64,000 bases of DNA from Candidatus Staskawiczbacteria bacterium (GCA_041659225.1 JBAZYR010000001.1:15266-79265), one strand, 5' to 3'; shown: positions 9,928 to 63,860, counted from the stretch's first letter. Numbers and translations are program-made. The notes: generated by a model from the letters alone, not told the origin.

Positions 9928-11852
<1,925 letters not shown>

Positions 11853-44734: not shown

Positions 44735-47253
<2,519 letters not shown>

Positions 47254-47264
47254 TTTTTAAAGAT

Positions 47265-48002
47265 TTATGACACGACGAAAACAAAATCAAAATTTAAACT
47301 ATTAAACTTGCAGGGGCAAACAACAGCATAATCTCCCCTTTCCCAACCGGTATTATATGTAGCATGATTTGTCTCGCATCGCCAACATTTACCCGCGTTA
47401 CTGACTACGGGAAAGTCTCCACCTCCACCACCAAAATTCAGACAGCTAGCGACATTATTAGTGCCGCTGCAAGTAGTCCCTGTCTGGTTTTTTAATGCAT
47501 CGGCATTCTCGTCCGAATGGTTAACCCCATAATCTTCGGGTATCAAACCGTGGGCCGAGCAAGCATCGGAGCAACTTTCTCCTAGCCCTTTAATCGCTCC
47601 TGGAGTGTGCCCTCCGCACCAGCATTGGTTAGCTCCACTCACGCTATTATAGCGTAAATAGCAAGGGCAAAGCGAGGCTTCTAACCTCACTTTATATTCA
47701 TTCCCGATGGTAAGGCTAACTAAATTAGAAAAAATCTTGTGTTCGTCAAGGTCACCGTCGCCATCATTTTCGCAAACAGTCGAAGTAAGGGTAACACTGT
47801 TTAAAGGAACAGAACCTTCCATCACATACATTATAGTCCCGACAGGAAGACAAAAACTTGAACCATCAGAAATCTTTCGGGCGGTATCAAGCTGCAGACC
47901 GACAAAAACTGAAGTTGCCTCAACTTTCGTGATAGGGATAATAACCAAGACAGTAAAAAAGATAATGAAAGCGGATAAAGAATAAATGTTTTTTGACATC
48001 AC
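47265..48002 (-). CDS. Secreted Cys-rich protein (245 aa), paralogous to the C-terminal approx. 200 aa of the PA14-repeat giant protein
   Basis: Signal peptide. Shared blocks with 48432..52205: (S/P)(F/Y)CLPVGT; C-x-C ... (N/Q)CW ... G(E/Q)SC(S/A)xxCSxxG; C-terminal C(P/A)C...(L/P)NF(D/P)F(V/G)FVV. Confidence 0.6.
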   Translation of the reverse strand: MMSKNIYSLSAFIIFFTVLVIIPITKVEATSVFVGLQLDTARKISDGSSFCLPVGTIMYVMEGSVPLNSVTLTSTVCENDGDGDLDEHKIFSNLVSLTIGNEYKVRLEASLCPCYLRYNSVSGANQCWCGGHTPGAIKGLGESCSDACSAHGLIPEDYGVNHSDENADALKNQTGTTCSGTNNVASCLNFGGGGGDFPVVSNAGKCWRCETNHATYNTGWERGDYAVVCPCKFNSLNFDFVFVVS

Positions 48003-48020
48003 AATTTTGGATTTAAAAAA

Positions 48021-48386
48021 TTAAGGGTTCAATGGCTTAATAATAATTCTGTCTTCAGTAACAGCGTTGTTTTTATATAATATTTTCCCTTTTACCTCGA
48101 CTGTTTGACCGTCCTTCCATCCGACGCTTAAATAATATTCTTTAGACATAACCGGCCAAACCCAATAAACTTTCCCTTCTTCTGTCCTGATGGTTACTTT
48201 AGTACCGGACATATCAACTATTCCCCTGACAACGTCGGGATATTTATCGTCCTCCACATTATTTACTGGTTCTTGAGGGTATTGGTTATTAAAAACCGGG
48301 GAAAAATAATAATATCCTAGTGCTCCTGATAAAATACCTATCGCCAATAACAGGACACAAATAATAATTACATTTTTTTTCGCCAT
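48021..48386 (-). CDS. Hypothetical membrane-anchored small protein (121 aa)
   Basis: N-terminal TM helix (VIIICVLLLAIGILSGALGYYYF) and a beta-rich C-terminal part. Confidence 0.4.
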   Translation of the reverse strand: MAKKNVIIICVLLLAIGILSGALGYYYFSPVFNNQYPQEPVNNVEDDKYPDVVRGIVDMSGTKVTIRTEEGKVYWVWPVMSKEYYLSVGWKDGQTVEVKGKILYKNNAVTEDRIIIKPLNP

Positions 48387-48431
48387 ATTTATTGATTTTA
48401 ATTATACCAGACAACTTTTCCTGTTAAAATC

Positions 48432-51400
48432 CTATAGCCCGACGACAAACCCGAAGGGAAAATTAGGAATAATCCCATTGCAGGCACATATCGGGACGAA
48501 ATAGAAATCATCGGCATCGTAACCAATGGAACAATCACGCCACATTGGAGACACAGCAGATGCGCACGCGTACCAGCCATAACCATACCAATACCCGGCA
48601 ACAGGAGAACCATATTCCCCGGAGTCAAAGATGCACTCGTCACAAGCTATTCCGAAGTGCGCAATTGCACTGCAATTTAAATCTTCTTCACTGCAATCGG
48701 CTGTTTTATTTCCACCCTTATCAGAGCATACACCTGCACATGACTGTCCCCTGTTTCCCAAATACCAGCAATTGCCCCCAGAAGAGAATCCAGTACATTC
48801 AGTTGCAGTTGATATTTCCACAGTGTACAGATGGCCATAAGTTATCACCAACGAAGGCAAAAGACTTATCGTGCTGCTGGGAGCGCAAGTTGCAGCTGTT
48901 AAAGTTTTTTCCCTCAAGACCGTTGTTCCTTCTTTAAGAGTAATTTTTGTTCCGACTGGAAGACAATAGGGCGATCCGTTATCAGTTGCGCTGTCTACCT
49001 TTATCCGGAAAATGCTGTCAATACTCGCCCCAGGCGCTGGCGTGTTAGATATAGTGACAGTCGAACAAATAGTTTTTTGTCCCTGAGTTGCGCACTTGGA
49101 AGGTTTGGCTTTTATTGTCCCCGTTACTTCTGACGGAGCTATCCTTTGAGCGGGTTCCCCAGCAAAAACTGCTTTTAGCACAAGGTTGCCGAAGCTGGTA
49201 TTAGTCAAACCATTTTCAATAAAACTACGGGTTTTCATGGTGTTGATATCGCTAGGAAGTTCAGCATATGTTGCAGCCATTGCTGAAGGCAGATTAGAAA
49301 GACGGAAAGTATTCCAGCCACCCCCCGGAGGCTGGAACCAAAGAAGTGCAACCGCATTACCGGCATCATGCTCGTGCCTTACTATTAATCTATGCGGGCC
49401 TTTGGCTAAATAAACGGTTCCGCTATGGCTGTAGCAAGAGCAATAAGTATTTTCCCCATAAATTCCTGCTAATACAGATCCGTCTATTTCGACCTCCATG
49501 GCATCTTCTCCATCAACCGCAAAACCCCATGTGCCTTGCCCTGCATCGGTAATGTCCAGGATAGTGGAGAAATATAAATTGGAGTTGGCTGGGAAAGTAC
49601 CGAAGCTATTTTCGCCTATGTCGGTAATCAAACTCCTAGATATTAAATTTGAAGGGACATAATCATTAATCAATCCTGCGTGATCAGTGGGATGGCCAAC
49701 CGTCCCGCCATACTCTGCAAAAAGCACCTTGTTGATATTATCTATCGCGAGATAATTCTTGGGAACGTATGTTACGTGGGCTTCACCTGCAGAGCTCGTA
49801 GTTGAGGAGCCGATATTAAAGATATCGCTTTGGTTAACGAAAGTCACGATTTTATTAACCATTGCAGCTCCTGCGCCGTCTTTGAGAACAGCCGAAAGTA
49901 TGGATGATACCACACCATCTATATTAAGTGTGCTGGGAGTAACAGTGAACTGCTCGAGTATTGTCGGGGTCCCGCCTGATACCGCCACTGTTGCGGTCGA
50001 ACTTTCGGCAGGTAGAAGCGGAATTGCAAAGCCTTCATCTCCCGCATAGGTTGCCTTTAATGAAACGTTCCCGATACTAGTATTCTCGATTCCCTTTTTT
50101 ATAAAATTAAGATTCTTGATAACTGAATCGCCTAATAACTCTGCATATATTGAAGCCGCCCCGCTTCCCAAGCTAATACCACCAAAAACCTTCCACGAAC
50201 CATCTGCCGGAGACTTATAATAAAGAACAGCTGCCTCGTTCCCCGTTACATTTTGATGGCGTACAGTCACCCGATGAATTCCCGCTGACAATGTAATGGT
50301 GTTCGAGTGACTAGTACACGAACAAGTGGAATGTTGATACCAGCCGACTACGATATTGTCATCTATCTGAAGCTCTACCGCATCGTCGCCATCAACTGCA
50401 AACTGCCAGGACCCGGGTATGTGAACATCCATGATAGTAGTGAAGAAATAATTAGTATTATCTTGTGGGGGCACTACGCCTTCAAAAAGATCTATGGCAT
50501 CCCTCGTACCTTTATCCAATACAGTGGTATATGTATAGTCATTTATCAATGCGTTATGATCTGCAGGGTTCCCTGTATCGCCTGCATATTTCACATAGAG
50601 TATTTTCCCTCGGTTGGCATCTGATATGTAATGCTTGACTAAATAACTCAGACTGGCAACACCCGAGCCGTTAGTGACTGCCGAACCCATGTCGTTATTA
50701 TCGGTAACATTAAAAAAAGACACAGGTTGGCCGCTTATCAGGTTCCCATTTTGATACTTAAGGGTAGCTGAAAGATTTATTGGGTCGTCGATATAGGTTT
50801 CAATCGGAACAGTAAATGGATTTATTAGCGGACGCTGTCCTATAATAATTTCTAAGGGGGCTGTTGTTTCAGAGGGTGATATCCGAAGACTACTATTTCC
50901 GGCATAACTTGCCTTCAAGGTATGCGCCCCGAGATTCAAGATTGAAGAGTCCAAACCAGAAGCTATAAAACCAGGGGCTGTCAATTCAGAATCCGGTAAT
51001 AGTTTTGCATAGAGTTTCGCCTTTGTTCCTAGATTGGTACTAAAAAAATAAAATGAGGCATCTGTCGGGGATTTATAATAAAGGATCACGTCATTACCAC
51101 CAGTATCATTTTCGTGCCTCACAACCAGTCTATGCAGGCCTGCTGTCAGGTTTACCGATCCTGTATGTGTAAAACATGCGCAGCGACCATGATAACCATA
51201 CCAACCGACTACTACTGCCCCATCTATTTCTAACTCTACGCCATCATCGCCATCAATCGCGAAACTCCAAACACCAGCCTCCTTAACATCCATAATAGTC
51301 GTAAAATAATAGTTCTGATAGTTATTAGCTGTTGGACTTTCTATCCTTATTTCTGTCCTCAGCGCTTTTTCTATAAGAGAGGAATATTGATAATCTGCCA

Positions 51401-52205
51401 ACAATCCGCTATGATTTGTGGGATTTCCGCTTGTACCGCCATACTTTACATAAAGTATTGAATCCCCTAGGGCGCCGCTAGGCACAAAACTTGCCGTGGC
51501 GACACCATCAGTAGTAGTAGCTGATGCGATATCGACTCCATCCGTTTCATTTCTAAAATTTACCGTATCGCCAGTTGTTGGAATTAAATTTCCATCACCA
51601 TCCCTAATAGTAGCCGAAATAGTCATAACCTCTCTGAAATCGGCTTCAGCTTGAACATAAAATGGATTAATCTGAGATACTTGTCCCCCGCCAGAATTAA
51701 TCGTAGCGCAAATCCTATAATCAGAAATCGTAACACATCCTCCGCCTCCGGTTATTAAAAACTCTCCAGCGTTTCCTAGGTCAGCCTCAGCCCGGCCATC
51801 ATTGGTGTTGCCTAAATTATCGGAGGCAAAAACAAAAATCTTATACGCAGCCGGGGTAAAAGAGCTGACATCAACTCGGGCATTATATATACCGTCTCCT
51901 GCAACGTCATCATAGTTTCCTATTTGCCCGTCGTCATAAAGTATTGCACGCGCCATCTGGGCGCCGGTGCTCTTCCTTCTTATTACATAGCCGGCAGATG
52001 AAACGCCAGAAACATCGGTAATATTGGCAGTAACCTTTATTGTGCTATTTTGTGTTATAACCGTATTGGATGCAGCCGTGATGGTTGGCCAAGCATGTCC
52101 AGTGAGCCAGGGATATATTTCAAAACTGGGCTGTACGGCATATATCAAACCAGCTAAAGAAAGAGGGGCTAAAGGAATTAAAAAATATATATATTTATTC
52201 ATCAC
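48432..52205 (-). CDS. Large secreted protein (1257 aa) with three repeats, each a bacterial Ig-like domain followed by a PA14/GLEYA-like domain, plus a Cys-rich C-terminal domain; candidate adhesin
   Basis: Signal peptide MMNKYIYFLIPLAPLSLAGLIYA. Three copies of YFTTIMDV...GxWxFAVDGDDxVELxIDG.VVVGWY......C.C..H......L.AG.HRL.VRH.N..G...V.LYYKSP. An Ig-like unit precedes each copy (…ILYVKYGGTSGNPTNHSGLLADY…). The C-terminus is paralogous to 47265..48002. Confidence 0.7.
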   Translation of the reverse strand: MMNKYIYFLIPLAPLSLAGLIYAVQPSFEIYPWLTGHAWPTITAASNTVITQNSTIKVTANITDVSGVSSAGYVIRRKSTGAQMARAILYDDGQIGNYDDVAGDGIYNARVDVSSFTPAAYKIFVFASDNLGNTNDGRAEADLGNAGEFLITGGGGCVTISDYRICATINSGGGQVSQINPFYVQAEADFREVMTISATIRDGDGNLIPTTGDTVNFRNETDGVDIASATTTDGVATASFVPSGALGDSILYVKYGGTSGNPTNHSGLLADYQYSSLIEKALRTEIRIESPTANNYQNYYFTTIMDVKEAGVWSFAIDGDDGVELEIDGAVVVGWYGYHGRCACFTHTGSVNLTAGLHRLVVRHENDTGGNDVILYYKSPTDASFYFFSTNLGTKAKLYAKLLPDSELTAPGFIASGLDSSILNLGAHTLKASYAGNSSLRISPSETTAPLEIIIGQRPLINPFTVPIETYIDDPINLSATLKYQNGNLISGQPVSFFNVTDNNDMGSAVTNGSGVASLSYLVKHYISDANRGKILYVKYAGDTGNPADHNALINDYTYTTVLDKGTRDAIDLFEGVVPPQDNTNYFFTTIMDVHIPGSWQFAVDGDDAVELQIDDNIVVGWYQHSTCSCTSHSNTITLSAGIHRVTVRHQNVTGNEAAVLYYKSPADGSWKVFGGISLGSGAASIYAELLGDSVIKNLNFIKKGIENTSIGNVSLKATYAGDEGFAIPLLPAESSTATVAVSGGTPTILEQFTVTPSTLNIDGVVSSILSAVLKDGAGAAMVNKIVTFVNQSDIFNIGSSTTSSAGEAHVTYVPKNYLAIDNINKVLFAEYGGTVGHPTDHAGLINDYVPSNLISRSLITDIGENSFGTFPANSNLYFSTILDITDAGQGTWGFAVDGEDAMEVEIDGSVLAGIYGENTYCSCYSHSGTVYLAKGPHRLIVRHEHDAGNAVALLWFQPPGGGWNTFRLSNLPSAMAATYAELPSDINTMKTRSFIENGLTNTSFGNLVLKAVFAGEPAQRIAPSEVTGTIKAKPSKCATQGQKTICSTVTISNTPAPGASIDSIFRIKVDSATDNGSPYCLPVGTKITLKEGTTVLREKTLTAATCAPSSTISLLPSLVITYGHLYTVEISTATECTGFSSGGNCWYLGNRGQSCAGVCSDKGGNKTADCSEEDLNCSAIAHFGIACDECIFDSGEYGSPVAGYWYGYGWYACASAVSPMWRDCSIGYDADDFYFVPICACNGIIPNFPFGFVVGL

Positions 52206-52225: not shown

Positions 52226-53068
52226 TCATATTTTCAGCGCTTCGCTACATTTCCCAGCTAAATCGCAAGCCTTTATATCAACATCGTAAGCTCCTTCGGG
52301 GCCCTGCCAAAAATACTTGTATGTTATTGCATTAGGATCACCGGGGATTTCTTTGACCATGGTAAATGTCTGATCGAAAATTGCGCCGTTAGTAGCTGCG
52401 TCATATATCCTAGCCTGAGGATACCCGCCCACAATATCAATGTCATCCCTCGCATCAGAAATTTCAGCCCTAATTTCAATATCTACCCCAGAACTAGAAC
52501 TTATAGGAATAACCTCAGGCCATTCAATTAAAGGCGGGTGATTGTCTGGTGAAACCGCAGAAGCAGCGAAATTTAACTCAATGGCTCTAGTTATCTTTTT
52601 ATGCGCCCCATAGGACTTAATAGTCCCCGTTCCATCTTCATTAATATCAGTTACTACCCTGTATTGGTTATTGTTCACCACAAGGGAAGAATATGTAATT
52701 GTACAATCATTGCAGTCATCGTTCGCACAACGCGGGCCGACTTGTCCGCATACACCAGGGGTGGGATCGCAATCGAAATCCGTACAACTCGTGCAAATAT
52801 CGCAAAGACCGCGCGTTATACCCGCACCCGCCGGTATAACCTTTCTATCAAGAAAAAGCGCTTGCTCGATACCGATATCAGCGACGTATAAAGCTTTAAC
52901 TGATTCTCCCATTTCCCTCACCAATACAATTTCGCCCATTAGTATCACGCCGATCCCAAGAACCACAGCCAAGGATATGCCCATTATGAAAAAAGTAACC
53001 AGCATGGCAACGCCTTTTTCTCCGAATCCGTATGTTAAATTTAATTTTTGATTATTTCTTTTTTTCAT
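52226..53068 (-). CDS. Membrane-anchored protein with a PilX-like N-terminal helix and a Cys-rich knot; putative pilus-associated protein
   Basis: N-terminus EKGVAMLVTFFIMGISLAVVLGIGVILMGE resembles the PilX_N hydrophobic segment. Cys cluster CDICTSCTDFDCDPTPGVCGQVGPRCANDDCNDCT. First gene after the minor pilins, 18 nt upstream of the PA14 protein. Confidence 0.45.
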   Translation of the reverse strand: MKKRNNQKLNLTYGFGEKGVAMLVTFFIMGISLAVVLGIGVILMGEIVLVREMGESVKALYVADIGIEQALFLDRKVIPAGAGITRGLCDICTSCTDFDCDPTPGVCGQVGPRCANDDCNDCTITYSSLVVNNNQYRVVTDINEDGTGTIKSYGAHKKITRAIELNFAASAVSPDNHPPLIEWPEVIPISSSSGVDIEIRAEISDARDDIDIVGGYPQARIYDAATNGAIFDQTFTMVKEIPGDPNAITYKYFWQGPEGAYDVDIKACDLAGKCSEALKI

Positions 53069-53623
53069 CTATGAGCCGTCTAAGTTTCTTTGAGAAACTG
53101 TCGTCTGGATCTTTTTCTTTATTGAGTCTTCTGTGCCTATAGTGTAGAGTTCGGCGGAAATAACAACTCGGGGCTGAAGAAAATCAAGACTGCTTGCTCC
53201 GAAGGCCTTAAATTCAAAATAGGTTATTCCGATAGCGTTAGACATAAGCGGAATGGCTGAACCGCCATTCTTTATTTCCTTTAATTTTCCGTCTATATCT
53301 TTAAAAAACTCCTGGCAGGAATCGTTGTCTGAGTGATTGATAAACTTTACTCCCTTACCGTCGTGGGTAATTTCATAGTTGTCCCCTGCCGTAATGCAGT
53401 TGCCGCCATCGTCAACTTTGGCCATTCTTAAAGCTCTCCCCATATATTCAAAAACATAACTGGCCTGATTTAACAGTTCCTGCTGTTTTAATGTTCTTCT
53501 TTGTTGTTTTATTATGGAAACAAAAATATCGGTAGCGGTCATAAGAACTATCGAAAAGATAGCCGTAACTGCTATAAGCTCAATTAATGTAAATCCTTTT
53601 GATTCCATTGTTATTAACGCCAA
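53069..53623 (-). CDS. Minor pilin / pseudopilin (prepilin-type N-terminal cleavage/methylation domain)
   Basis: Prepilin-type N-terminal cleavage/methylation motif KGFTLIELIAVTAIFSIVL. Confidence 0.75.
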   Translation of the reverse strand: MALITMESKGFTLIELIAVTAIFSIVLMTATDIFVSIIKQQRRTLKQQELLNQASYVFEYMGRALRMAKVDDGGNCITAGDNYEITHDGKGVKFINHSDNDSCQEFFKDIDGKLKEIKNGGSAIPLMSNAIGITYFEFKAFGASSLDFLQPRVVISAELYTIGTEDSIKKKIQTTVSQRNLDGS

Positions 53624-54147
53624 TTATATAAATCAGTTTCTGCGACAAAACTATACCCAGTACCTCTGTCGTCCCAAGATACCTCTACCTCTACATTCAA
53701 AACTTCATCTTCATGACCAGGAACTTCTGTAACAGTAATTTTTCTCGTGAACCCTGTCGGAGTGATGCCGTTATACCGATAAAAACCATCTTCATCGATA
53801 TACAAAAATTCCCCAGGAATGATCCACGACTTTAGCGGGGTTGCCCCTCCCACGCCACTATTGGTGGTATAATCAGCTTCGCAACCAGAAGCACAGTTAA
53901 TAATTCCATTATCCCATGCGACCGAACCGTCCAGCCAGTTTGTATCCCGGATGTTCCTTACTATTTCAATGCCCTCCTGAGCTAGATAAGCGGCAGTTAA
54001 CTTTGCTGACGCAGTTGAAGTTACCATAGCCATTCGCGAGAAAATAGAATAGGTTCCAAGGATAGCAACGACTAAGATAAAAATGGCAACCACCATTTCC
54101 AGTATTGTAAATCCTTTGTTTTGTTCTTTTAAAAAAGATTTGCTCAT
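53614..54147 (-). CDS. Minor pilin / pseudopilin
   Basis: NKGFTILEMVVAIFILVVAILG; overlaps the downstream gene by 10 nt. Confidence 0.75.
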   Translation of the reverse strand: MSKSFLKEQNKGFTILEMVVAIFILVVAILGTYSIFSRMAMVTSTASAKLTAAYLAQEGIEIVRNIRDTNWLDGSVAWDNGIINCASGCEADYTTNSGVGGATPLKSWIIPGEFLYIDEDGFYRYNGITPTGFTRKITVTEVPGHEDEVLNVEVEVSWDDRGTGYSFVAETDLYNWR

Positions 54148-54150
54148 CCT

Positions 54151-55122
54151 TTACCTTACCTCTATCATGCCCACCTTATTAACTGCGATGGTCATGGTTT
54201 TATTAAGATTTCTCTCCAAAGCTAGAACTATCTCGATCTCGGTGCTGCCAGGATCCATCCATTTTATCGTTGTATCTGGATTTGGCGGGGCAAAATTAAT
54301 ACTTACCTTCTGCGGAACCGAATTATTAATTTGCTTTATAACCACGCCTTTTTCTCCGATAGATATATTTTCAACAATACAATCGGCTGCTGTGTAATAC
54401 CCATAACATAAGTCCGGCAGGGTCGTGCAGTCAGGCGATCCGTCACTCTCTGTATCGGCATATAAGATATAATTTTTATTGGTAAGCGTTGCAGGGTTGA
54501 TATATATGCCGTAGCCATAAGCCAGTATAGCTGGCGGCTCAAGCTGCATTGGCTCGTACAGCGGATGTCCTCCTTGTGGCCCGCTAGGACCGCCGCTAAC
54601 CACAACAGAACATTGTTTGGTTGCAATAATTGTTCCGCTTGATCTGCTTACGGTTAAAGTCGTCGAATAATTCCCGGCGCTTGCAAAAGAGGTCGAGCAT
54701 GTAAGGCCGGTGCCGACGCAATCGCCTGACCAGGTGTATAAATAGTTTCCTTGTCCTCCTTCTGTTACAAAAGAAAATGTTGTTGACTCGTTGATTTGTA
54801 CCGGATTAGGCGAAGACGTGCACGAAACAATAACAATCTGCGGAGGTGGAGGATCATCTTTTGCTATATGCCCCCCAAGCGCGAGATTACTCAAAGATGC
54901 AAAATGCAAAGGCGCATAAGACAGACAACTGTCCACTTGAGTTGAGGACATTGCCATTGCCTGCGCCTTCCTTATATCCAGCACCAACTTATGCCCCGCT
55001 CTTCTTAGGGCGAGCTGGTCCCTTATCTCGCTGAAGTTATTAATCACCATACTCGCAAATAGCGTGATGATGAAAATAACGGCCACCATTTCGAGCAGAG
55101 TGAAACCTTTGTTGTTATTCAT
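54151..55122 (-). CDS. Minor pilin with a large C-terminal domain including a PKD/Ig-like module
   Basis: The true start is the ATG at 55120-55122 (MNNNKGFTLLEMVAVIFIITLFAS), which overlaps the pilD stop (ATGA). PKD-like segment NESTTFSFVTEGGQGNYLYTWSGDCVGTGLTCSTSFASAGNYSTTLTV. Confidence 0.7.
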   Translation of the reverse strand: MNNNKGFTLLEMVAVIFIITLFASMVINNFSEIRDQLALRRAGHKLVLDIRKAQAMAMSSTQVDSCLSYAPLHFASLSNLALGGHIAKDDPPPPQIVIVSCTSSPNPVQINESTTFSFVTEGGQGNYLYTWSGDCVGTGLTCSTSFASAGNYSTTLTVSRSSGTIIATKQCSVVVSGGPSGPQGGHPLYEPMQLEPPAILAYGYGIYINPATLTNKNYILYADTESDGSPDCTTLPDLCYGYYTAADCIVENISIGEKGVVIKQINNSVPQKVSINFAPPNPDTTIKWMDPGSTEIEIVLALERNLNKTMTIAVNKVGMIEVR

Positions 55123-55877
55123 GTTAATAAATTTAAATACCAGTTTATTAAATTTTGTCCAAAAAATATCGCTAAAAATGTTCCGGTAATTAAAAATGGA
55201 CCGAAAGGTATTTCGCTTTTCATTCCTTTCTTTCCTGCGATAATTAATCCTATCCCTATTATACCACCAATAAAGAAGGCTAAGAATAAAGCAGCCAGTA
55301 TGTTCGGGAAGCCGAGAATCAAACCCATCAAAAAAACGAGCTTTACGTCGCCAAAACCCAGCCATTTTCCTTTAGACACGAGAAAAATCAATAGGAACAA
55401 TCCAGAAGCTATAATGGCGCTAGATAAAGTTGAAAACTGTCCAAGAACGAAAAACTGTAAATCAAAAATCAAGGCTAAAAAAATAGCCGGAAAAACGACC
55501 CTGTCCGGAATAATATAGTGCTTGAGGTCATAGACGAAAATAATAATGGAGAGGGTGGAAATTAGAATTAAAAATTCAAACTCTAAATCCACCTGAAAAC
55601 CCGAATGCCAAAAAACTAATAAAAATAATGCTGCAGTGGCGAGCTCTACAATCGGATATTGTATTGATATCCCTTTCTTACAATAACGACACTTACCCGA
55701 TAAAGAGATATAACTTAAAACCGGCACTAAATCGCGCCAGCTTAGCTGGTGATGGCACGCGGGGCAATAGGATCTGCCCCTTAAAAAGCTTTCCTTCTTT
55801 TCGAGGCGAAAAATAACACAGTTTAAAAAACTACCTACGATTAAGCCGAGAAGGAGAAGATAAATAAGAGTAAGCAT
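55119..55877 (-). CDS. pilD: Prepilin peptidase (A24 family, PilD)
   Basis: N-terminal Cys4 box (FLNCVIFRL...YCPACHHQL...CRYCKK), polytopic membrane domain with catalytic Asp regions. Confidence 0.85.
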   Translation of the reverse strand: MLTLIYLLLLGLIVGSFLNCVIFRLEKKESFLRGRSYCPACHHQLSWRDLVPVLSYISLSGKCRYCKKGISIQYPIVELATAALFLLVFWHSGFQVDLEFEFLILISTLSIIIFVYDLKHYIIPDRVVFPAIFLALIFDLQFFVLGQFSTLSSAIIASGLFLLIFLVSKGKWLGFGDVKLVFLMGLILGFPNILAALFLAFFIGGIIGIGLIIAGKKGMKSEIPFGPFLITGTFLAIFFGQNLINWYLNLLT

Positions 55878-55938
55878 TGACTAATTCTACCAGAAATTTA
55901 TCTATTGGAGAATATATAACAAATGAATTAAAGACAAC

Positions 55939-56346
55939 TCAAGGGGGGCATACACTGCCTAAAGTCATCCACTGCTGCCACGTTATCTGTTTTCTAACGC
56001 CGGTACTATCCAAACACCACGACCCTGCAGTAGGATAGACATACTGCACAGCAACAACGTACGTGTTCTCTGCGCTAGAACATTTACCGTTTTTCCCCGT
56101 AGCGGCTTTAGCTGCATTATATGCTTTTAGAACTTCTGTATCACCACAAACCCCAACGTAGGTAGAACCGCTGCTATAAAATATTTCGGCGGCAGCGGGG
56201 ATTGCATTCATATTCCCTTTGGCAGCGGCGTTTTTAGCTTTATCACGAGCCGAACTTACGCTAGTGAATATAATGGAAGCCAAAATACCGATAATAGCGA
56301 TTACGACCAATAACTCAATTAATGTAAAACCTTTGGACCTGTTCAT
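55939..56346 (-). CDS. Type IV major pilin (PilA-like) copy 1
   Basis: MNRSKGFTLIELLVVIAIIGILASIIF followed by a small globular domain of about 100 aa with a C-terminal Cys pair. Confidence 0.85.
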   Translation of the reverse strand: MNRSKGFTLIELLVVIAIIGILASIIFTSVSSARDKAKNAAAKGNMNAIPAAAEIFYSSGSTYVGVCGDTEVLKAYNAAKAATGKNGKCSSAENTYVVAVQYVYPTAGSWCLDSTGVRKQITWQQWMTLGSVCPP

Positions 56347-56382
56347 TGTTTTTATTTTATCCCATTATCCCTTTGACGTAAA

Positions 56383-56417
56383 CAAAAACCACCCACATCA
56401 ATCGCGGGTGGTTTTTT
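56383..56417 (-). terminator. Intrinsic (bidirectional) terminator after pilin copy 2, preceding copy 1
   Basis: aaaaaCCACCCacatcaatcgcGGGTGGtttttt. Confidence 0.65.
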
Positions 56418-56431
56418 AGCTTGAGAAGACG

Positions 56432-56884
56432 TTACGGCGCGACATTACCATCACAATCATAGTCTCCCGTTGTACAATCCGAACCGCAAGCTGTAGTTAG
56501 AGAAGTTTTGTGTGCCGCCGAATCAACGCAATAATATTGAGCAGGATTCGGGCCCATTAATTTCACACAAGCACACCATTTATCGGTTGTAGCAGCATTA
56601 CTGTAGTCGGTACCGGCAGTACCAGAAGACTGTGCCCAGGCTGCGTTATACGCTTTTAGGGGATCTGTCCCAGCTGCGAAAATAGCGGCATAACTAAGGG
56701 GAGAGGCGCTGTCGTATATATTTTCTGCTGCAGCAGGAATCATGGAGAGGTTCGCCTTTATATTAGCGTCCCTTGCTTTAGCTCTAGCTGCATTAACATT
56801 TACAAACACGATGGAAGCTAAAATACCTATGATAGCGATTACGACTAATAACTCAATTAATGTAAAACCTCTTGATTTATTCAT
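56432..56884 (-). CDS. Type IV major pilin (PilA-like) copy 2
   Basis: MNKSRGFTLIELLVVIAIIGILASIVF; the N-terminal 30 aa are nearly identical to copy 1, and the C-terminal domain has diverged. Confidence 0.85.
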   Translation of the reverse strand: MNKSRGFTLIELLVVIAIIGILASIVFVNVNAARAKARDANIKANLSMIPAAAENIYDSASPLSYAAIFAAGTDPLKAYNAAWAQSSGTAGTDYSNAATTDKWCACVKLMGPNPAQYYCVDSAAHKTSLTTACGSDCTTGDYDCDGNVAP

Positions 56885-57010
56885 AATATTAAAATTTAAA
56901 ATACTTTTTACCTTTTACTAAATAGGTTCGACCTTTAAGGTCAAGTTAAGACCATTGATTACTTAATTTTAAACTATTAAGGAACGCCGTCAAGTGGAAA
57001 AGTATTATTA

Positions 57011-58219
57011 CTACACAGTATTCAACATTCCGTACATTGGAGACAACACCGAAATAGCTAATATGGCTACGCCTACTCCCAAGAAAACTATCAGAACCGG
57101 CTCAATCAAAGTCATAAAGTTATCTACTATCGCTTCAATCTCTTTTTTGTAAAAACCAACAATCTCCGCTAATGTTTTATCAAGCTTTCCTGTCTCCTCC
57201 CCAACTTTTATCATTTGAATGATAAACGGGGGAACCTGGTTCGGATATCTGACTAAAACAGAACTTATCTTCTCTCCCTCAGAAACCTCTTTTTCGGTTT
57301 CAGCAATAATTCCCTTGTACACATAATTATTGATGGTGTCCTTCGTTATCTCCAAAGCACGAACGATAGGCAGGCCGGCCATGATTAAAGTTGAAAGATT
57401 CTCGGCAAAGTTAACAATGTAGTTCTTCTGTAAAAATCCTCCGACAAGCGGAAGCTTGATTAATGTTACATCAAGAACCTTTTTACCTTCTTTGGTTTTG
57501 AAGTAGTAAATTAAGAAAACTATAAACCCTGCGGCGGCTATCAAGAGGAACAACCCGTAATGAGCAAACAGGTTGTAAAAACCTATAAGCATTTTTGTGG
57601 AAAAGGGAATATCACCGCCGGCATCCTCCAAAATTGTGATTAACTTGGGCATTACCATGGTCATAACCACAGCAATAACTATTACCAACGCAGATAAAAC
57701 TACTGCCGGGTAAATCATCGCACCTTTTATCTTAGACTTAATATCGTGCTGTCTTTCCAAATACGTACTAAGATGGTAAAGGGATTCAGATATCTTTCCC
57801 GAAGCTTCCCCGGATTTAATCAGGCTGATATAGAAAAAGCCAAAGGTCTCGGGACAGGCAGCAAGCGCGTCAGAAAGTGTATTTCCCTCTTCAATGAGCT
57901 TTGAAACAATCATAATTTTCTCCCGAAAAACCTTTTTACTGGTTTGGGAAGCCAGACTGGATAAGCTTTCAATAATCGGCACCCGCGAATCAATCATAAC
58001 CGCAAGTTGGCGGGAAAAGATAGAGAGATCTTTTTGAGATACCTTTTTCTTGAAAATTCCGCCCTTGAAAACATCAAACGGTGTTTTTTCCTCTTTTAAC
58101 GAGGTGACGAAAATATTGTATTTCTGCAAAAGAGCAGCAGCTGCTTCTTGGGAAGATGCTTCAATGGTACCGGTTTCAATTTCACCTCTTTGGCTTCTGG
58201 CTTGATAAATAAACTTCAT
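57011..58219 (-). CDS. pilC: Type IV pilus platform protein PilC (GspF family)
   Basis: Two GspF repeats, three TM segments, 402 aa. Confidence 0.85.
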   Translation of the reverse strand: MKFIYQARSQRGEIETGTIEASSQEAAAALLQKYNIFVTSLKEEKTPFDVFKGGIFKKKVSQKDLSIFSRQLAVMIDSRVPIIESLSSLASQTSKKVFREKIMIVSKLIEEGNTLSDALAACPETFGFFYISLIKSGEASGKISESLYHLSTYLERQHDIKSKIKGAMIYPAVVLSALVIVIAVVMTMVMPKLITILEDAGGDIPFSTKMLIGFYNLFAHYGLFLLIAAAGFIVFLIYYFKTKEGKKVLDVTLIKLPLVGGFLQKNYIVNFAENLSTLIMAGLPIVRALEITKDTINNYVYKGIIAETEKEVSEGEKISSVLVRYPNQVPPFIIQMIKVGEETGKLDKTLAEIVGFYKKEIEAIVDNFMTLIEPVLIVFLGVGVAILAISVLSPMYGMLNTV

Positions 58220-58224
58220 ATGGG

Positions 58225-59289
58225 TTACCTCAGGAGATTCTTTATCTCAAACGGGTTCAAGGAATAATCAATGGCGTTTTTAAGGGTAATCTCTTTCTTT
58301 CTCACTAAATCAGCTAAATATCTATCCGAAGAAACCATCCCTTCGCGAGAAGAAGTATCAATAATTGCCGGTATTTCATGGGTCTTGTTTTCACGGATAA
58401 GGTTAGCGGTTGCTGTGTTGCTAACCATAACCTCACAGGCAGGAATAAAACCGCCTCTTATCCTGGGTATTAATCTTTGACTGACTATGCCCAAAAGCGA
58501 ACCTGATAATTGATACCTTATCTGATTCTGCTGCTCAGCAGGGAAAACGTCGACAATACGGTGGATCGTCTGGGCGGCAGAATTAGTATGCAAGGTGGCG
58601 AAGATTAAATGGCCCGTTTCTGCCGCAGTAATAGCAGTAGAAATAGTTTCAAGGTCCCTCATCTCTCCCACCATGATTACGTCGAGATTTTGACGGAAAG
58701 CTGCCCGAAGCGCTGATGAAAAACTTATAGTATCTCGATAGACCTCCCTCTGATCAATAATTGCCCGGTCATCCTCGTAAACATATTCGATAGGATCTTC
58801 AATCGTGATTATGTGCACCGGCCTCGTATGGTTTATCTCGTCAACTAGAGCAGCTAAAGTAGTGGTCTTGCCTTGGCTTGAAGCGCCTGTAATCAAGACT
58901 AAACCCTGGGTTTTGGAGGTGAACTCGTGCAAAACAGGAGGAAGGATCAGCTCTTCAATCGTTTTAATCCTGGCAGGAATCATACGCAAATCCAAGCTTA
59001 TGGTCTCCTGCTGAAAAAAACAGTTAATTCTGAACCGCGCCTTACCCTCGAAGTTATACGAAAAATCTATTTCTTTCTCTTCAAAGAATTTCTTGTATTG
59101 CATGGTGTTCATCAGCAGGCGGGCCAAGGCCTCTGAGTCAGCAGGTTCAACTACTTTTTCTTTAGCTAAGGGTATCAATTGCCCGGTTAGCCTAAGGGTG
59201 GGCTTGTGACCGACGGAAAGATGCAAATCAGAGGCTTCTTCCTCGACAATTGTGACCAATAGCTTCTTTAGATATGCGGGATAATCCAT
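58225..59289 (-). CDS. pilT: Twitching-motility/retraction ATPase PilT
   Basis: Walker A GASSQGKTTTLAA, Asp box, His box, 354 aa. Confidence 0.85.
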   Translation of the reverse strand: MDYPAYLKKLLVTIVEEEASDLHLSVGHKPTLRLTGQLIPLAKEKVVEPADSEALARLLMNTMQYKKFFEEKEIDFSYNFEGKARFRINCFFQQETISLDLRMIPARIKTIEELILPPVLHEFTSKTQGLVLITGASSQGKTTTLAALVDEINHTRPVHIITIEDPIEYVYEDDRAIIDQREVYRDTISFSSALRAAFRQNLDVIMVGEMRDLETISTAITAAETGHLIFATLHTNSAAQTIHRIVDVFPAEQQNQIRYQLSGSLLGIVSQRLIPRIRGGFIPACEVMVSNTATANLIRENKTHEIPAIIDTSSREGMVSSDRYLADLVRKKEITLKNAIDYSLNPFEIKNLLR

Positions 59290-59307
59290 AATATTTTAAT
59301 TAATAGT

Positions 59308-61032
59308 TTATTGCTCCTCAGTCGCTCGGGTAATTTCCTCCACAGTAGTTTCTCCTGCTAAAATCTTCAAAATTCCCTCCTGCTCCATTGTGAGCATACC
59401 TTGTTTCTTGGCTAGCTTAGAAATCGCATCTTCGGTAGCATCTTTTAATATGATCTTAGCTAGCTCATCAGTCATCGGCAATACCTCGAAGAGACCGATT
59501 CTTCCGGCATATCCTTTAAAGTTGCACTTATCGCATCCTTTCGGTTCGTATATAGAGAAGCCCTGTCCTATTTTCACCTCATTCTGGATGTTCAAAGGCA
59601 TACTTTTTACTCTTTCTACAATATATTTTCTAATCGGTTCTGGCGGAGTAATCTTCTTTCTGCAGCTCGTACAAAGAGTCCTGACTAGCCTTTGAGAAAT
59701 CGCTACGCCTAAAGTATATGGTATTAGGAACGGCCTTACGCCCATATCAATCAATCTCGGCACCACTCCGATGGCAGAATTGGTATGCAATGTTGAAAGA
59801 ACGATATGTCCGGTAAGTGCAGCGTGCGTTACGAGGTTAGCTGTTTCTTCGTCACGGACCTCACCAACCATGATAACATTCGGATCTTGTCTAAGAATTT
59901 GTCTCAAGCCTTGGGCAAAAGTATAACCAATGTCCGGTTTTACCTGAGATTGGTTTACTCCGGGGATAGAATACTCGATAGGGTCTTCAATCGTTACGAT
60001 ATTAACGCTTTCGTTATTCATAAATCGCAGAAGCGCATAAAGCGTTGTAGACTTACCTGACCCGGTAGGGCCTGTGGCCAAAATCATTCCATACGGTTTT
60101 TTAATGGCGGCTTTTATCATTTCAAAGTTCCTTCCCCGCAGACCCATAGCCTCGTAATCTTTCAGCCCCTCGCCTGAATCAAGAACTCTGATTTCAATTT
60201 TTTCTCCGTTAAGACAAGGATAAGTAGCAACTCTAAAGTCGACGTTGTCTTCCCCTACTTTTGTTGAAAACCTCCCGTCTTGAGGAACGCGGTTCTCGTC
60301 AATCTTCAAATTAGCAAGAATTTTTATTCTTGTAACAATCGATTGATGAACACTGATGGGTAAAAACAAGGTGGGGTATAAAATACCGTCGATACGGAAG
60401 CGAATCTTTAATTTATCTTTTATTGGTTCAATATGTATATCTGAAGCGTTAGATTCTAAGGCGTGCCGGAGAATAGAAAAAACCATTTTGATGATAGGAG
60501 CTTCGTCGCCTATTGCCTTCTCTACCTCGGATTTTTCTTCTGCAAATTCCCTGATTTCTTTTTTAGATTTTTCAAACTCAACCAGCACTTTGCCTGCCTC
60601 GCTTTTTAAATTCCTATGTTGCTTTAAAAGTTTATTAAAATCACTGATGGTTATTAAAGAAATTAAATACTCAAATTTTCCCTGCCTGCTTGAAAATCTC
60701 AAAGCGTCCTGGGCTGAGGTATTCTCAGGATAGACCATTCCGATTTCCACAACATCTCCCTTTTTAGACAAAGGAATCATTTTATACGTCGCCGTTGACT
60801 CTTCCGGGATTAGCTCTAATACCTCTTTCGGTACGTCATCAATAGAAACCTTTTTAAATGGTATTTTAAAAATCTCAGCCTTTGCCTTGAATAAAACATC
60901 TTCTGGAATAATTCCCTTCTCGGTGATTATTTCCTCGGCGGTTTTACCCGTCTTCTTAACATCGTATTCTATCTCGGCCTGCTTTTTCTCTTCCAATACG
61001 CCTCTTTCAATTAACTTTTGAATAAAATTCAT
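59308..61032 (-). CDS. pilB: Type IV pilus assembly ATPase PilB (GspE family)
   Basis: GSPII N-domain, Walker A GPTGSGKSTTL, and a tetracysteine motif (CTSC...CDKC). Confidence 0.9.
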   Translation of the reverse strand: MNFIQKLIERGVLEEKKQAEIEYDVKKTGKTAEEIITEKGIIPEDVLFKAKAEIFKIPFKKVSIDDVPKEVLELIPEESTATYKMIPLSKKGDVVEIGMVYPENTSAQDALRFSSRQGKFEYLISLITISDFNKLLKQHRNLKSEAGKVLVEFEKSKKEIREFAEEKSEVEKAIGDEAPIIKMVFSILRHALESNASDIHIEPIKDKLKIRFRIDGILYPTLFLPISVHQSIVTRIKILANLKIDENRVPQDGRFSTKVGEDNVDFRVATYPCLNGEKIEIRVLDSGEGLKDYEAMGLRGRNFEMIKAAIKKPYGMILATGPTGSGKSTTLYALLRFMNNESVNIVTIEDPIEYSIPGVNQSQVKPDIGYTFAQGLRQILRQDPNVIMVGEVRDEETANLVTHAALTGHIVLSTLHTNSAIGVVPRLIDMGVRPFLIPYTLGVAISQRLVRTLCTSCRKKITPPEPIRKYIVERVKSMPLNIQNEVKIGQGFSIYEPKGCDKCNFKGYAGRIGLFEVLPMTDELAKIILKDATEDAISKLAKKQGMLTMEQEGILKILAGETTVEEITRATEEQ

Positions 61033-61061
61033 CGTAGAATATTATATTAATAATTTATCTC

Positions 61062-61499
61062 TTAGGGTCTTCTGGGAGGAGTAACCGGCGGAGGCGGTGC
61101 TGTTTCGTAATACGGGGTAAACGGATTGATCCTTCCTCCTGTTATTTCCTCCAGGGTAATCGACGACAATCCAAGCTCCGTTAATGTTTTCATAGCTTCT
61201 TCTTCTGAAATAGAAGATATCTTGCCAGCCTTTGCTTCCCCTTTTGAATTTTTACCGGTATAGCTGAATTCTTTTCTCAACTCCGGGAGGAAATCTAATT
61301 TTGTTATCTTATCTGATTTCAAAACATCAAAATTAATTCTTATTTCCGGCGCCTGAAAAACCTGCTCTATCGGAGTTTCTTTTGATTTTGACAGAAAAAC
61401 ACTAAGACTTATTAAGGTCAGGATAATGACAAAAAACCCGACTATGCTAACAATTAGCGTCTTCTGCCTTTCTTTTGGTGATATGAAAACTATTGCCAT
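61062..61499 (-). CDS. Hypothetical pilus-operon protein (N-terminal TM, Pro-rich C-terminus), possible PilP-like component
   Basis: Its position between pilO and pilB, one TM helix, and a C-terminal PPPPVTPPRRP. Confidence 0.4.
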   Translation of the reverse strand: MAIVFISPKERQKTLIVSIVGFFVIILTLISLSVFLSKSKETPIEQVFQAPEIRINFDVLKSDKITKLDFLPELRKEFSYTGKNSKGEAKAGKISSISEEEAMKTLTELGLSSITLEEITGGRINPFTPYYETAPPPPVTPPRRP

Positions 61500-61513
61500 T
61501 TTCTTACCGGTTG

Positions 61514-62065
61514 CTAATAGGAATAAACTTTAATGCTTAATGAAATTGGATAAGTTAACTCCGTCATAAAAGATGTTGAAGACGGAGGAGTCACGCTAAA
61601 GGAAAAATTGTCTCCCTCGATTATACGTGAAGACTTCTCTAAAGATGCAAGGAACCGAACAAGCGCAGGGTATGATCCGAACAGTTCAATGTTCAAGCTA
61701 GCTTCTTTCACATTCGTATCAACTCCGACCGACGAAGATTTGCTTACACTTATTCTCCTCACGATTATCCCGCTTTCCAATCCTTTTTGGTATAGGAAAT
61801 CGACTAAAGGGGCGATGGAAAGTTTATCGGGCAAGGCAGTATCAATTTTCTTTAAAGCATCCTGGTATAGCATCAACTCTCTGTAAGCACTAGTTACCTC
61901 TATAAAATACGCATTCTTGCCCTGAAACTCTGCCTCTTTTTTACCAATTTCCGTCAAAAGGCCCTGAAATTGTTGATACTTCGGCAAGACTACATAAAAA
62001 GCCAATACCAAAACAACAATTAGCAGAACTGCGGTAGAAATTGGTTTATTTATCCTTAAATTCAT
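61514..62065 (-). CDS. pilO: Type IV pilus assembly protein PilO-like
   Basis: N-terminal TM, a coiled-coil and a C-terminal alpha/beta domain. Its position in the operon follows the pilN-like gene. Confidence 0.55.
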   Translation of the reverse strand: MNLRINKPISTAVLLIVVLVLAFYVVLPKYQQFQGLLTEIGKKEAEFQGKNAYFIEVTSAYRELMLYQDALKKIDTALPDKLSIAPLVDFLYQKGLESGIIVRRISVSKSSSVGVDTNVKEASLNIELFGSYPALVRFLASLEKSSRIIEGDNFSFSVTPPSSTSFMTELTYPISLSIKVYSY

Positions 62066-62075
62066 TCTAATTATC

Positions 62076-62687
62076 CTAGAAGATATAGTTATTAAAAGCA
62101 GCGCTGGTTGACGGACTAGTTGTGTCTATAATGCCGCCCGGCAGCACCTCCGGCGTAGCTTGGAAAAATATATCGGGATTGATTGCTAAGGTTAAACTAA
62201 ATTTTATTCTGCCTGTCTCGGCTGTTTCAGAACTTAACCCTATAATTTCTTTAATAAATACGCTTCCATCGAATATTGAAACCTGTCGAGTAAGGGCTGT
62301 CGTGCTTTCAGCCTCTCCTGCAAGCTGAATCGACGCCGCCTGAGACGATAAAGAAAATGTATTGAACCAAACATTGGGCAAAGTTATTTCTTCAAAAAGT
62401 CTGAGTACGTTTGTGGGAATTTTATGGTTTGTTAAAAGGGTGGCGAAATTGTCAATTTTTCTTTGGTATACAGCCACCTGCTTCTCTAGCTCTTTTTGTT
62501 GCGCAGTTCCGATGCTGGCGATTTTTTCGTCCAGGTCCTTCATGGTTTTTTCTTGGAGAGAAATTTTAAAATAAAAAATAAGGAAACAAAAAATAGTCGC
62601 CAGCAAAAGAGCAATGAAAAAATAGAACACAGTATCTAACCACCAGACCTTTTTGTTTTTTAGTTGGTAAAGGATGCTTAAATCCAT
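62076..62687 (-). CDS. pilN: Type IV pilus assembly protein PilN-like
   Basis: Short cytoplasmic N-terminus, one TM helix and a periplasmic coiled-coil; follows pilM. Confidence 0.55.
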   Translation of the reverse strand: MDLSILYQLKNKKVWWLDTVFYFFIALLLATIFCFLIFYFKISLQEKTMKDLDEKIASIGTAQQKELEKQVAVYQRKIDNFATLLTNHKIPTNVLRLFEEITLPNVWFNTFSLSSQAASIQLAGEAESTTALTRQVSIFDGSVFIKEIIGLSSETAETGRIKFSLTLAINPDIFFQATPEVLPGGIIDTTSPSTSAAFNNYIF

Positions 62688-62744
62688 ACCTTTAAATATA
62701 TGATTTGATTACTTCATTATACAATATACAGCTTCCAATCAAAA

Positions 62745-63812
62745 CTACTCTAATCCACCTAAGGCCACTCCAACAGCTGCAGAGTATCTTGGAGCCATTT
62801 CTTTTATGGTTTCGTTTAAAATTGGCGGATAAAGGAAATCTGAGAAACAGTTTGGAATCTCTACTTTTTTCTTAAGCACCTCCCCGAAATACTCCCTTAG
62901 TCCCGGAAGGTTAGCGGTTCCGCCCGTTAGATAAACCTCATCTATCTCTCTTTCTTCTTTCATAAAGAAATCATTAGATATCTTTTTTATCTCAGCCAGT
63001 AACGGATCAATCAAAAGATAGAGGATTTCGCTAATTCTTTTATCCTGAGCAATCAATCCTTCTTTGGACTTTATCTCTTCCGCCTCCGTGTATCCTTTAT
63101 TAAAAGCAGACGCAACAGCGTGCGTAAGCTGGGTGCCGGCGAAGTCAAAACTAAAGCTTGTTTTTAAAATACCTTTATCAATAATATTAACAGTCGTACT
63201 TTGGACGCCAATATCAATCAAACAAATCACCTTCTTATTATCCTTTATTATCGACCGGACAACTGAAAACGCTTCAGCCTCAATCGCATACAGCTCCAAA
63301 CCGGCTGCCTGAGCAATCCCCTGATATTCCTGAACAACTTGGTTGGCAACCGCAGCCACTAATACCTTGAGCCCGGAACGATTGTCGCCTGGCGTTCCGC
63401 TTATTAACCGCCAATCCAGAGTAGTTTCAGAAACAGGCAAAGGAATGTATTGAGGCGCGTTAAAACGTATAGCCTCGGGAATTTCTCCTTTCCCCATAGG
63501 CGGCAAATCAAAAGAAACAAAAAAAGTTGAAAAGTCAGGAATAGAGAACATCGCTGCTTTGGTTCTGATTCTGCCTTCGTCAATTATCGCCTTGATCGCT
63601 TTTAAAACGAAAGACCGGGAAAGCAAATAGTTTCCTTTTTTAGATTCTTTGTATGGTTCGCGAATAACTGAGGTGGTTTTAATCTCCCCGTAATTTTCTA
63701 AAGTCCTTCCTCCTCCCCATTTGGAAAGCTCAACTATTTTAACAGACGAGGTCCCTATATCCACCCCCAACATTTTTTTAGGGAAAATTAAACCAAAAGG
63801 ATTGAACACCAT
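62745..63812 (-). CDS. pilM: Type IV pilus assembly ATPase-like protein PilM (actin fold)
   Basis: LGVDIGTSSVKIVEL phosphate-1 motif, DIGVQSTTVNI, and FtsA/PilM-like architecture. Confidence 0.8.
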   Translation of the reverse strand: MVFNPFGLIFPKKMLGVDIGTSSVKIVELSKWGGGRTLENYGEIKTTSVIREPYKESKKGNYLLSRSFVLKAIKAIIDEGRIRTKAAMFSIPDFSTFFVSFDLPPMGKGEIPEAIRFNAPQYIPLPVSETTLDWRLISGTPGDNRSGLKVLVAAVANQVVQEYQGIAQAAGLELYAIEAEAFSVVRSIIKDNKKVICLIDIGVQSTTVNIIDKGILKTSFSFDFAGTQLTHAVASAFNKGYTEAEEIKSKEGLIAQDKRISEILYLLIDPLLAEIKKISNDFFMKEEREIDEVYLTGGTANLPGLREYFGEVLKKKVEIPNCFSDFLYPPILNETIKEMAPRYSAAVGVALGGLE

Positions 63813-63860
63813 ATTAATATATTATACTCCAAACTTTTCAACTATGCTAACATTAATTCA

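Follow-up and report, generated by a model that had tools for sequence, protein, structure and literature searches.

A probable secretin-less type IVa-like pilus operon with a conserved small accessory gene in a Candidatus Staskawiczbacteria genome

The 64,000-nt window studied here (the whole stretch of DNA that was analysed, taken from a metagenome-assembled genome of Candidatus Staskawiczbacteria; Patescibacteria, or candidate phyla radiation, CPR) carries on its minus strand, at 52226-63812, what is very probably a chromosomal operon for a type IVa-like pilus, i.e. a retractable, secretin-less machine suited to an envelope without an outer membrane. We read the locus in this way because family assignments were obtained for all core parts, together with motifs in PilB, PilT, PilD and the prepilin leaders; because the genes are tightly spaced, keep their order in five loci and come with no secretin in the window or in the next 10 kb; and because the hairpin that follows the first pilin gene (pilin A) has a counterpart in a relative (L006) and ortholog alignments reveal module insertions. 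Published work also enters into this reading: the type IV pilus (T4P) genes of CPR bacteria are co-localised, enriched in the group and without PilQ (PMC6744442), and the T4P of Saccharibacteria function in twitching and host binding, are essential, and bear lectin-like modules on their minor pilins (PMC9894109, PMC10633639, PMC11623550). The sequence holds nothing that contradicts the reading, and the sole unusual part of the locus is one small accessory gene (61062-61499).

Gene content and order of the pilus locus

Fourteen closely packed genes run along the minus strand from 63812 down to 52226 (Table 1), with intergenic gaps of -4 to 61 bp except for gaps of 126 bp and 85 bp around the pilins. 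A first-pass annotation, made by a model from the DNA alone, had placed all core T4P parts in one block, and this holds: every T4P gene that it claimed is found, on the minus strand and where it had been placed, by the list of open reading frames (ORFs); both an extension ATPase and a retraction ATPase are encoded; and profile hidden Markov models from Pfam and NCBIfam, the check that it had proposed, support the core assignments. The components that define the type IVa class are all represented, i.e. an A24 prepilin peptidase, PilB with PilC, a dedicated PilT, PilM/PilN/PilO, and class III leaders.

At the level of motifs, PilB has a pair of CxxC motifs (residues 454 and 500) and, at residue 321, the Walker A sequence GPTGSGKS; PilT has its Walker A motif at residue 135 and reads ATANLIRE against the canonical AIRNLIRE; and PilD, which is probably an N-methyltransferase as well, has CxxC at residues 38 and 63 and GFGDVK at 174. 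PilB (TIGR02538) and PilC score high against their equivalog models, yet under the strict cutoffs. The PilN model is matched by 5/5 collected orthologs, the window PilN by itself falling below cutoff; the top PDB sequence match of this protein is Myxococcus xanthus PilN, and it is not significant.

Five loci were compared, namely that on the present contig (L004) and those of four relatives (L001, L002, L006 and L008). The order common to all five is a ComF gene divergent from PilM-PilN-PilO, then a small gene, PilB, PilT, PilC, between one and three pilins, PilD, a set of three minor pilins (as far as each contig reaches) and a PilX-like gene. As a separate observation on the relatives, L002 has a stand-alone response-regulator receiver gene (8568-8924, plus strand) inserted between pilB and pilT. 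In L008, genes for a PemK toxin and an acetyltransferase (8885-9952, plus strand) are inserted between pilO and the small T2SSF_N gene, and PilN is lengthened to 350 aa, with a DUF5018 domain and a second transmembrane (TM) segment.

The secretin, PilP, ComEC and ComEA families have no match among the scanned window ORFs of at least 110 aa or among the genes called over the 10 kb that follow the window, a region that encodes the full ComF, a DUF3298 protein, a third pilin paralog, a LAGLIDADG protein, an HD protein, RecG and TsaD. The first-pass annotation had likewise seen no secretin gene, and the finding agrees with CPR surveys in which PilQ is missing (PMC6744442). Over the same span neither part of the pair that marks diderm systems, the PilQ secretin and the PilP lipoprotein, was found, which fits a monoderm form of the machine.

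Table 1. Features of the pilus locus and its immediate surroundings, in window coordinates
Feature	Position	Strand	Evidence
PilM, actin-like cytoplasmic assembly protein	62745-63812	-	TIGR01175 155 bits (cutoff 133, above); PF11104 E 2e-36
PilN, bitopic alignment protein	62076-62687	-	PF05137 E 0.006 by itself; 5 orthologs best E 4e-6
PilO	61514-62065	-	PF04350 E 2e-8, above cutoff
145-aa bitopic membrane protein	61062-61499	-	T2SSF_N-like domain; not PilP
PilB extension ATPase	59308-61032	-	T2SSE E 5e-126 and MshEN domain; TIGR02538 537 bits
PilT retraction ATPase	58225-59289	-	TIGR01420 426 bits (cutoff 319, above)
PilC platform protein	57011-58219	-	two T2SSF stretches, E 1.5e-52; precomputed T2SSF_N and T2SSF
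Pilin A, 150 aa	56432-56884	-	N_methyl E 7e-11; leader MNKSRG, then FTLIE
Intrinsic-terminator-like hairpin and U tract, 3' of pilin A	56379-56416	-	folding
Pilin B, 135 aa, paralog between terminator and pilD	55939-56346	-	N_methyl E 1e-10
PilD prepilin peptidase	55119-55877	-	A24_N_bact (PF06750) E 1e-33; Peptidase_A24 (PF01478) E 6e-16
Minor pilin 1, 323 aa, GspH/FimU-like N-terminus	54151-55122	-	TIGR01708 E 8e-7 and N-methyl domain
Minor pilin 2, 177 aa, PilV/GspI-like, no extra domain	53614-54147	-	N_methyl E 4e-6; TIGR02523 PilV E 2e-6, below cutoff; orthologs 168-188 aa
Minor pilin 3, 179 aa from ATG, GspJ/PilW-like, no extra domain	53069-53608	-	N_methyl E 2.5e-6; gspJ E 8e-5, below cutoff; orthologs 181-207 aa
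PilX/GspK-like fourth minor pilin, 280 aa	52226-53068	-	conserved core, Cys-rich insertion and ~110-aa C-terminal domain
Divergent intergenic region, 48 bp	63813-63860		promoter-like TTAGCA-18-TATAAT, 63850-63821, minus strand, for pil operon
ComF-family (ComFC/GntX-like) gene, first 46 codons	63861-64000	+	divergent from pilM, cut by window end
Adhesin-like protein, 1257 aa	48432-52205	-	Big_1, Big_3_5 and PA14 matches; starts 20 bp downstream of pilX-like gene

Tandem pilins and the hairpin between them

Both pilins have the leader MN(K/R)S(R/K)G followed by FTLIE; they are 45% identical to each other (E 8e-30), with near-identical N-termini and diverged globular parts, and pilin A is 49% identical to the lone pilin of L006. 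The 126-bp gap upstream of pilin A contains a promoter-like TTGACG-16-TAAAAT at 56993-56966. The claim that a terminator lies between the two genes is well founded, since folding reveals a genuine hairpin of the terminator type 3' of pilin A, with a 13-bp stem and a 7-nt loop at 56384-56416 (centroid -20 kcal/mol, z -3.4), one that is absent from the list produced by a simple terminator scan. The 3' tail UUUUUGUUUACGUCAAAG is common to this hairpin and to the hairpin 3' of the lone L006 pilin; a strong hairpin (z -5.1 to -5.5) lies 3' of the last pilin before pilD in L001, L002 and L008, and the pilin B-pilD interval of the present locus folds into no hairpin (z +0.25).

Because the hairpin of the lone L006 pilin has the same 3' tail, pilin A represents the ancestral slot and probably the major pilin, and pilin B is a later added copy inside the pilD/minor-pilin unit. 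With its promoter-like site and strong terminator, pilin A is also the probable abundant subunit, and pilin B, which lies beyond that terminator in the pilD/minor-pilin unit, is probably expressed below it. The first-pass annotation had taken 56432-56884 for the highly expressed copy, and comparison with the relatives favours the same gene as the principal pilin. A third PilA-type paralog, 51% identical to pilin A, lies about 2 kb past the window end (L004 7867-8322, minus strand), where, beyond ComF, it adjoins a DUF3298/RsiV-like gene; its leader MERKG is followed by FTLIELLVVIAIIGILASIVFVNV....

Minor pilins and their modules

Class III leaders of 4-11 residues with G-1, F+1 and E+5 (KG followed by FT(L/I)(I/L)E) are present in five proteins. 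The best matches of the three minor pilins that follow pilD are sub-threshold ones to GspH, PilV and GspJ, which in gene order correspond to the classical core minor-pilin order. The PilX-like protein, encoded by the last gene of the set, has a prepilin-like N-terminus (KG before VAMLV) without Glu5; it found no match in Pfam or NCBIfam, the PilX_N profile included, and it is by N-terminus and gene position that it fits a PilX/GspK-type fourth core minor pilin.

Extra domains had been ascribed to all three minor pilins in the first-pass annotation. This is correct for minor pilin 1, which is expanded, but not for minor pilins 2 and 3, which are about as long as their orthologs; the PilX-like protein, on the other hand, is also expanded. 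The true start of minor pilin 1 is 55122, not the ORF start at 55365, and its ATG overlaps the pilD stop as ATGA. Right after helix alpha1 the protein has an insertion of ~125 aa (~54538-54927) that is missing from orthologs of 189-221 aa; among its homologs, two metagenomic ones share the insertion, one has there a Cys-rich insertion of another kind, and three lack any. The PKD-like module that had been noted in one minor pilin is supported to the extent that PKD or PKD_4 models match 3/3 insertion carriers (E 2e-5 to 7e-4), at 20-23 bits and hence under the cutoffs of 23.5 and 27. The insertion contains the motifs WSGDC and GxYxxTxTV, and its top PDB profile match is a phage Ig-like decoration protein (E 1.6e-4); an AlphaFold2 (AF2) model of minor pilin 1 built from a 7-sequence alignment has a mean predicted local distance difference test score (pLDDT) of 35 and is unusable.

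Counterparts of the PilX-like protein measure 129-191 aa in L002, L006 and L008, and its core and modules were defined by alignment with the 129-aa, core-only L002 ortholog, which has the same position, and with three expanded homologs. By analogy with other pili, the extra modules of the two expanded minor pilins probably act in adhesion.

The small gene upstream of pilB

Directly upstream of pilB, all five loci have a small gene, in the present case one for a 145-aa protein with an N-terminal MAIVF, a TM helix (residues 8-36), a beta-beta-alpha-beta domain (76-118) and a C-terminal GRxNPFxPY; helix and domain are both seen in an AF2 model with a mean pLDDT of 82.7. The exact database match is annotated as a hypothetical protein, the local Pfam and NCBIfam searches gave no match, and a precomputed label on the gene, a weak one, is PF28597 (T2SSF_N). 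Kinship with PilC is seen through profile-profile comparison: hhalign aligns the folded domain with PilC N-termini (first 45 residues) over 44 columns with a probability of 96.9% and E 1.4e-10, BLASTP of the protein against PilC gives E 0.12, and among PDB sequences the protein matches residues 4-59 of M. xanthus PilC best (E 0.35).

The family comprises 24 close homologs and, at E<=1e-3 with 50% clustering, 376 representatives, nearly all of 95-180 aa. Its hallmarks are a near-invariant MAIVF (79/173 members, with conservative variants in most others, and SPK-RQK next), a single TM helix, the beta-beta-alpha-beta domain and the GRxNPFxPY tail; the L002 ortholog lacks the T2SSF_N domain and retains the N-terminal peptide, the helix and an RGNPF tail. 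Net charge over 109 family members is +3.1 before the helix and +0.3 after it, from which the positive-inside rule predicts an N-in, C-out topology, so that the PilC-like domain is predicted to face outward, unlike PilC's own.

The gene is best described as a conserved accessory of this clade's pilus locus and not as PilP, and our guess is that its product is a membrane adaptor of the alignment complex. More specifically, and as a tentative proposal about which we are doubtful, it may be a fourth, Patescibacteria-specific subunit of that complex that replaces PilP, with the N-terminal MAIVF(I/V)SPK-RQK docking on PilM or the motor and with the outward domain and GRxNPFxPY contacting PilN/PilO or the cell wall. 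The N-terminal peptide appears to resemble the PilM-binding peptide of PilN, INLLP, and would dock in a comparable way. Were the proposal true, the 145-aa protein would link the motor to the envelope in a machine without a secretin. A literature search for T2SSF_N or PF28597 returned no paper in the searched library that names the small gene by this Pfam domain, and the T2SSF_N small protein is the one element that might repay more work.

The ComF neighbour

The gene divergent from pilM lies outside the 52226-63812 range of the first-pass annotation, and its translation begins MPKVKNFLLDIFFPRFCLGCGREATYLCEDC.... The full protein, taken from the source contig, has 236 aa, CxxC...CxxC motifs and a Pribosyltran domain; it matches TIGR00201 with E 1e-26 (94 bits, cutoff 234) and GntX with E 4e-29, also below cutoff. 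We assign it to the ComF/ComFC family as a divergent member, since the score is under the curated cutoff. That annotation had also pointed to a divergent ComF-family gene here, and the ComF-PilM pairing indeed recurs in 5/5 loci compared. The promoter-like site proposed for the pil operon in the intergenic region comes from a consensus scan, with 10/12 matches, and is a pattern match only. A contribution of the locus to DNA uptake is possible, the basis for it being gene neighbourhood only.

Alternative explanations

Models for GspE, GspF, GspG, GspH and GspJ match nearly as strongly as the pilus models, and the public database name of minor pilin 1 is 'type II secretion system protein'; both facts would suit a type II secretion system (T2SS) with pseudopilins in place of a surface pilus. 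We nevertheless consider a T2SS extremely improbable, given that PilT and PilM are both above curated cutoffs, that the PilB model outscores GspE, that GspC, GspD and GspL are lacking among the genes scanned, and that without a secretin or an outer membrane there is nothing for a T2SS to cross. It is also conceivable that the locus is mainly a competence pilus that, together with ComF, ComEC and DprA, supplies a nucleotide-auxotrophic cell with imported DNA, with adhesion secondary. CPR bacteria have been proposed to scavenge DNA via T4P and ComEC (PMC6744442), pilM has a ComF-family gene as its divergent neighbour in every locus compared, and recA and ssb are in the same window. This explanation strikes us as unlikely, however: PilM/N/O, PilT and four minor pilins with adhesin-like modules form the layout of a type IVa pilus (T4aP) for twitching and adhesion and not that of a minimal ComG system, the ComGA model reaches 241 bits against 537 for the PilB model, the window has no ComEC or ComEA match, and in Saccharibacteria comEC is dispensable and T4P essential, while T4P-2 mutants keep competence (PMC10633639, PMC11623550).

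Two narrower questions concern single parts of the locus. The tandem pilins were suggested in the first-pass annotation to reflect pilus phase or antigenic alternation, and a switchable pair is what two paralogs with near-identical N-termini and diverged globular parts, with a third paralog 2 kb beyond the window, might bring to mind. Yet neither pilin gene is flanked by inverted repeats, the single repeat is a 119-nt 5' coding similarity (76% identity) as expected of paralogs, gene scans of the window and the 10 kb beyond it found no recombinase nearby, and one to three tandem pilins are a stable feature of the relatives too; the suggestion is unsupported and we regard switching as improbable. 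The 145-aa gene, tentatively labelled PilP-like at the outset, would be a degenerate PilP if its position after pilO and its membrane anchor were taken at face value, and its C-terminal R-x-N-P-F presumably recalls motifs in some PilP N-terminal regions. That label has to be given up, and a degenerate PilP is very improbable: there is no PF04351 match at E<=0.1, a TM helix stands in place of a lipobox, the AF2 model has the beta-beta-alpha-beta fold and no beta-sandwich, the one domain that folds is a homolog of the PilC N-terminus (T2SSF_N), and the partner of PilP, the secretin, was not found in the window or the 10 kb past it.

Several parts of the type IVa-like pilus reading are weakly supported. 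All functions here are assigned by homology; curated cutoffs are not reached by PilN, by the minor-pilin subclasses, by the PKD module or by ComF, and the PilX-like protein is without a family match; the secretin scan covered the window and 10 kb of the 785-kb contig only; and Saccharibacteria mutants of the one testable pilus system are normally competent, which makes the DNA-uptake link weak (PMC11623550).

Surroundings of the locus

The 1257-aa protein encoded next to the pilX-like gene is a probable surface adhesin with an N-terminal Ig-like domain, three ~290-aa repeats (38-44% identical, Big and PA14-like) and a ~215-aa Cys-rich C-terminal domain; it has no detectable domain in common with the PilX-like protein. 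Because the block 46834-52205 is missing at this position in L002 and L006, it represents a lineage-specific insertion that separates the pilus operon from ligA, although the 1257-aa gene may be co-transcribed with that operon. We considered this PA14/Ig protein as a PilY1-like tip adhesin of the locus and rejected it, the pilX-like gene being followed directly by ftsW or ligA in L002 and L006. A 245-aa protein (47265-48002, minus strand) shares the Cys-rich C-terminal domain of the 1257-aa protein (31% identity, E 1e-7).

Elsewhere the window carries housekeeping genes (rpoD, dnaG, groEL, uvrA, uvrC, RNase J, recA, ftsK, rpoB, rpoC, ftsW and ligA), and an Rfam search over the window returned three tRNAs, none in the pilus region, and nothing else. 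A 2288-aa ORF (12352-19218, minus strand) has weak fn3 and G8 matches only; in this very small genome it is one more giant protein, probably an extracellular one. A 131-aa protein (23427-23822, plus strand) matches Phage_holin_4_2 (E 6e-15) and is encoded between uvrC and a gene for an SBP_bac_5 solute-binding protein with a peptidoglycan-binding domain. Over positions 1-64000 the GC skew is negative nearly throughout and most genes are on the minus strand, consistent with one replichore; GC content is 39-46%.

Proposed mechanism and significance

The mechanism that we propose for the type IVa-like pilus is drawn from well-studied T4aP families. PilD would cleave the prepilins and probably methylate them too, and pilin A would be polymerised on the PilC platform with power from PilB, the platform being held by PilM-PilN-PilO and the clade-specific bitopic T2SSF_N protein. 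The four core minor pilins (in GspH-, PilV-, GspJ-, GspK-like order) would prime assembly and sit at the pilus tip, where two of them would carry extra modules, i.e. a PKD-like Ig insertion in one and a Cys-rich insertion with a C-terminal domain in the other. The fibre would be retracted by PilT, and a secretin would not be needed. By analogy, its likely roles are host or surface attachment and twitching motility; T4P of Patescibacteria are required for twitching and host association (PMC9894109), they are essential in Southlakia epibionticum, where comEC is not (PMC10633639), and Saccharibacteria have lectin-like minor pilins in two pilus systems, of which the non-essential one can be mutated without loss of competence (PMC11623550).

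T4P are thought to be central to the way in which ultra-small CPR bacteria find and hold their hosts, and are essential in the few species in culture. CPR T4P without a secretin, with modular minor pilins and with nearby competence genes are already published, and the present locus supplies a further case, clean and complete, from a class that is uncultivated; it leaves the current picture of CPR pili unchanged. It shows tip-associated proteins that are variable and module-accepting and a motor that is conserved, and it draws attention to a widespread small gene that lies upstream of pilB in the loci compared.

Comparison with known systems

The closest counterpart is T4P-1 of the Saccharibacteria Nanosynbacter lyticus TM7x and Southlakia epibionticum (PMC11623550, PMC10633639), likewise from Patescibacteria, which has a single locus with PilB, PilT, PilC, PilM/N/O, PilD and several pilins, no secretin, a small major pilin and large accessory modules on the minor pilins. 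The present locus comes from a different class (Staskawiczbacteria), and its modules differ, being a PKD-like insertion after alpha1 and a Cys-rich insertion with a C-terminal domain where Saccharibacteria T4P-1 has L-type lectin and beta-propeller modules; the T2SSF_N small gene goes unmentioned in the papers on that system (PMC11623550, PMC10633639). The T4aP of monoderms such as Clostridium and Streptococcus sanguinis (PMC3244431, Melville & Craig 2013) similarly combine PilB, PilT, PilC, PilD and PilM/N/O, without PilP or PilQ, with several pilins, some of them modular with grafted domains. Relative to these monoderm systems, the present locus has two additions, the ComF neighbour and the T2SSF_N protein. 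Pilin modules of S. sanguinis are appended C-terminally, whereas one module in the present locus is inserted right after the N-terminal helix.

Diderm T4aP (Pseudomonas, Myxococcus and Thermus) have in common with this locus the motor, the platform, the alignment proteins, retraction by PilT and the four core minor pilins in a fimU-pilVWX-like order; the locus differs from them in having no PilQ, PilP, TsaP or PilY1 homolog over the span covered and in having the bitopic T2SSF_N protein at the place of pilP. For that protein the known relative is the N-terminal domain of PilC/GspF (PF28597), with which its folded domain aligns over those 44 columns and to which the precomputed match also points; in PilC, which is polytopic, this domain forms the cytoplasmic N-terminus, whereas here it is by itself, preceded by one TM helix, and is predicted to face outward.

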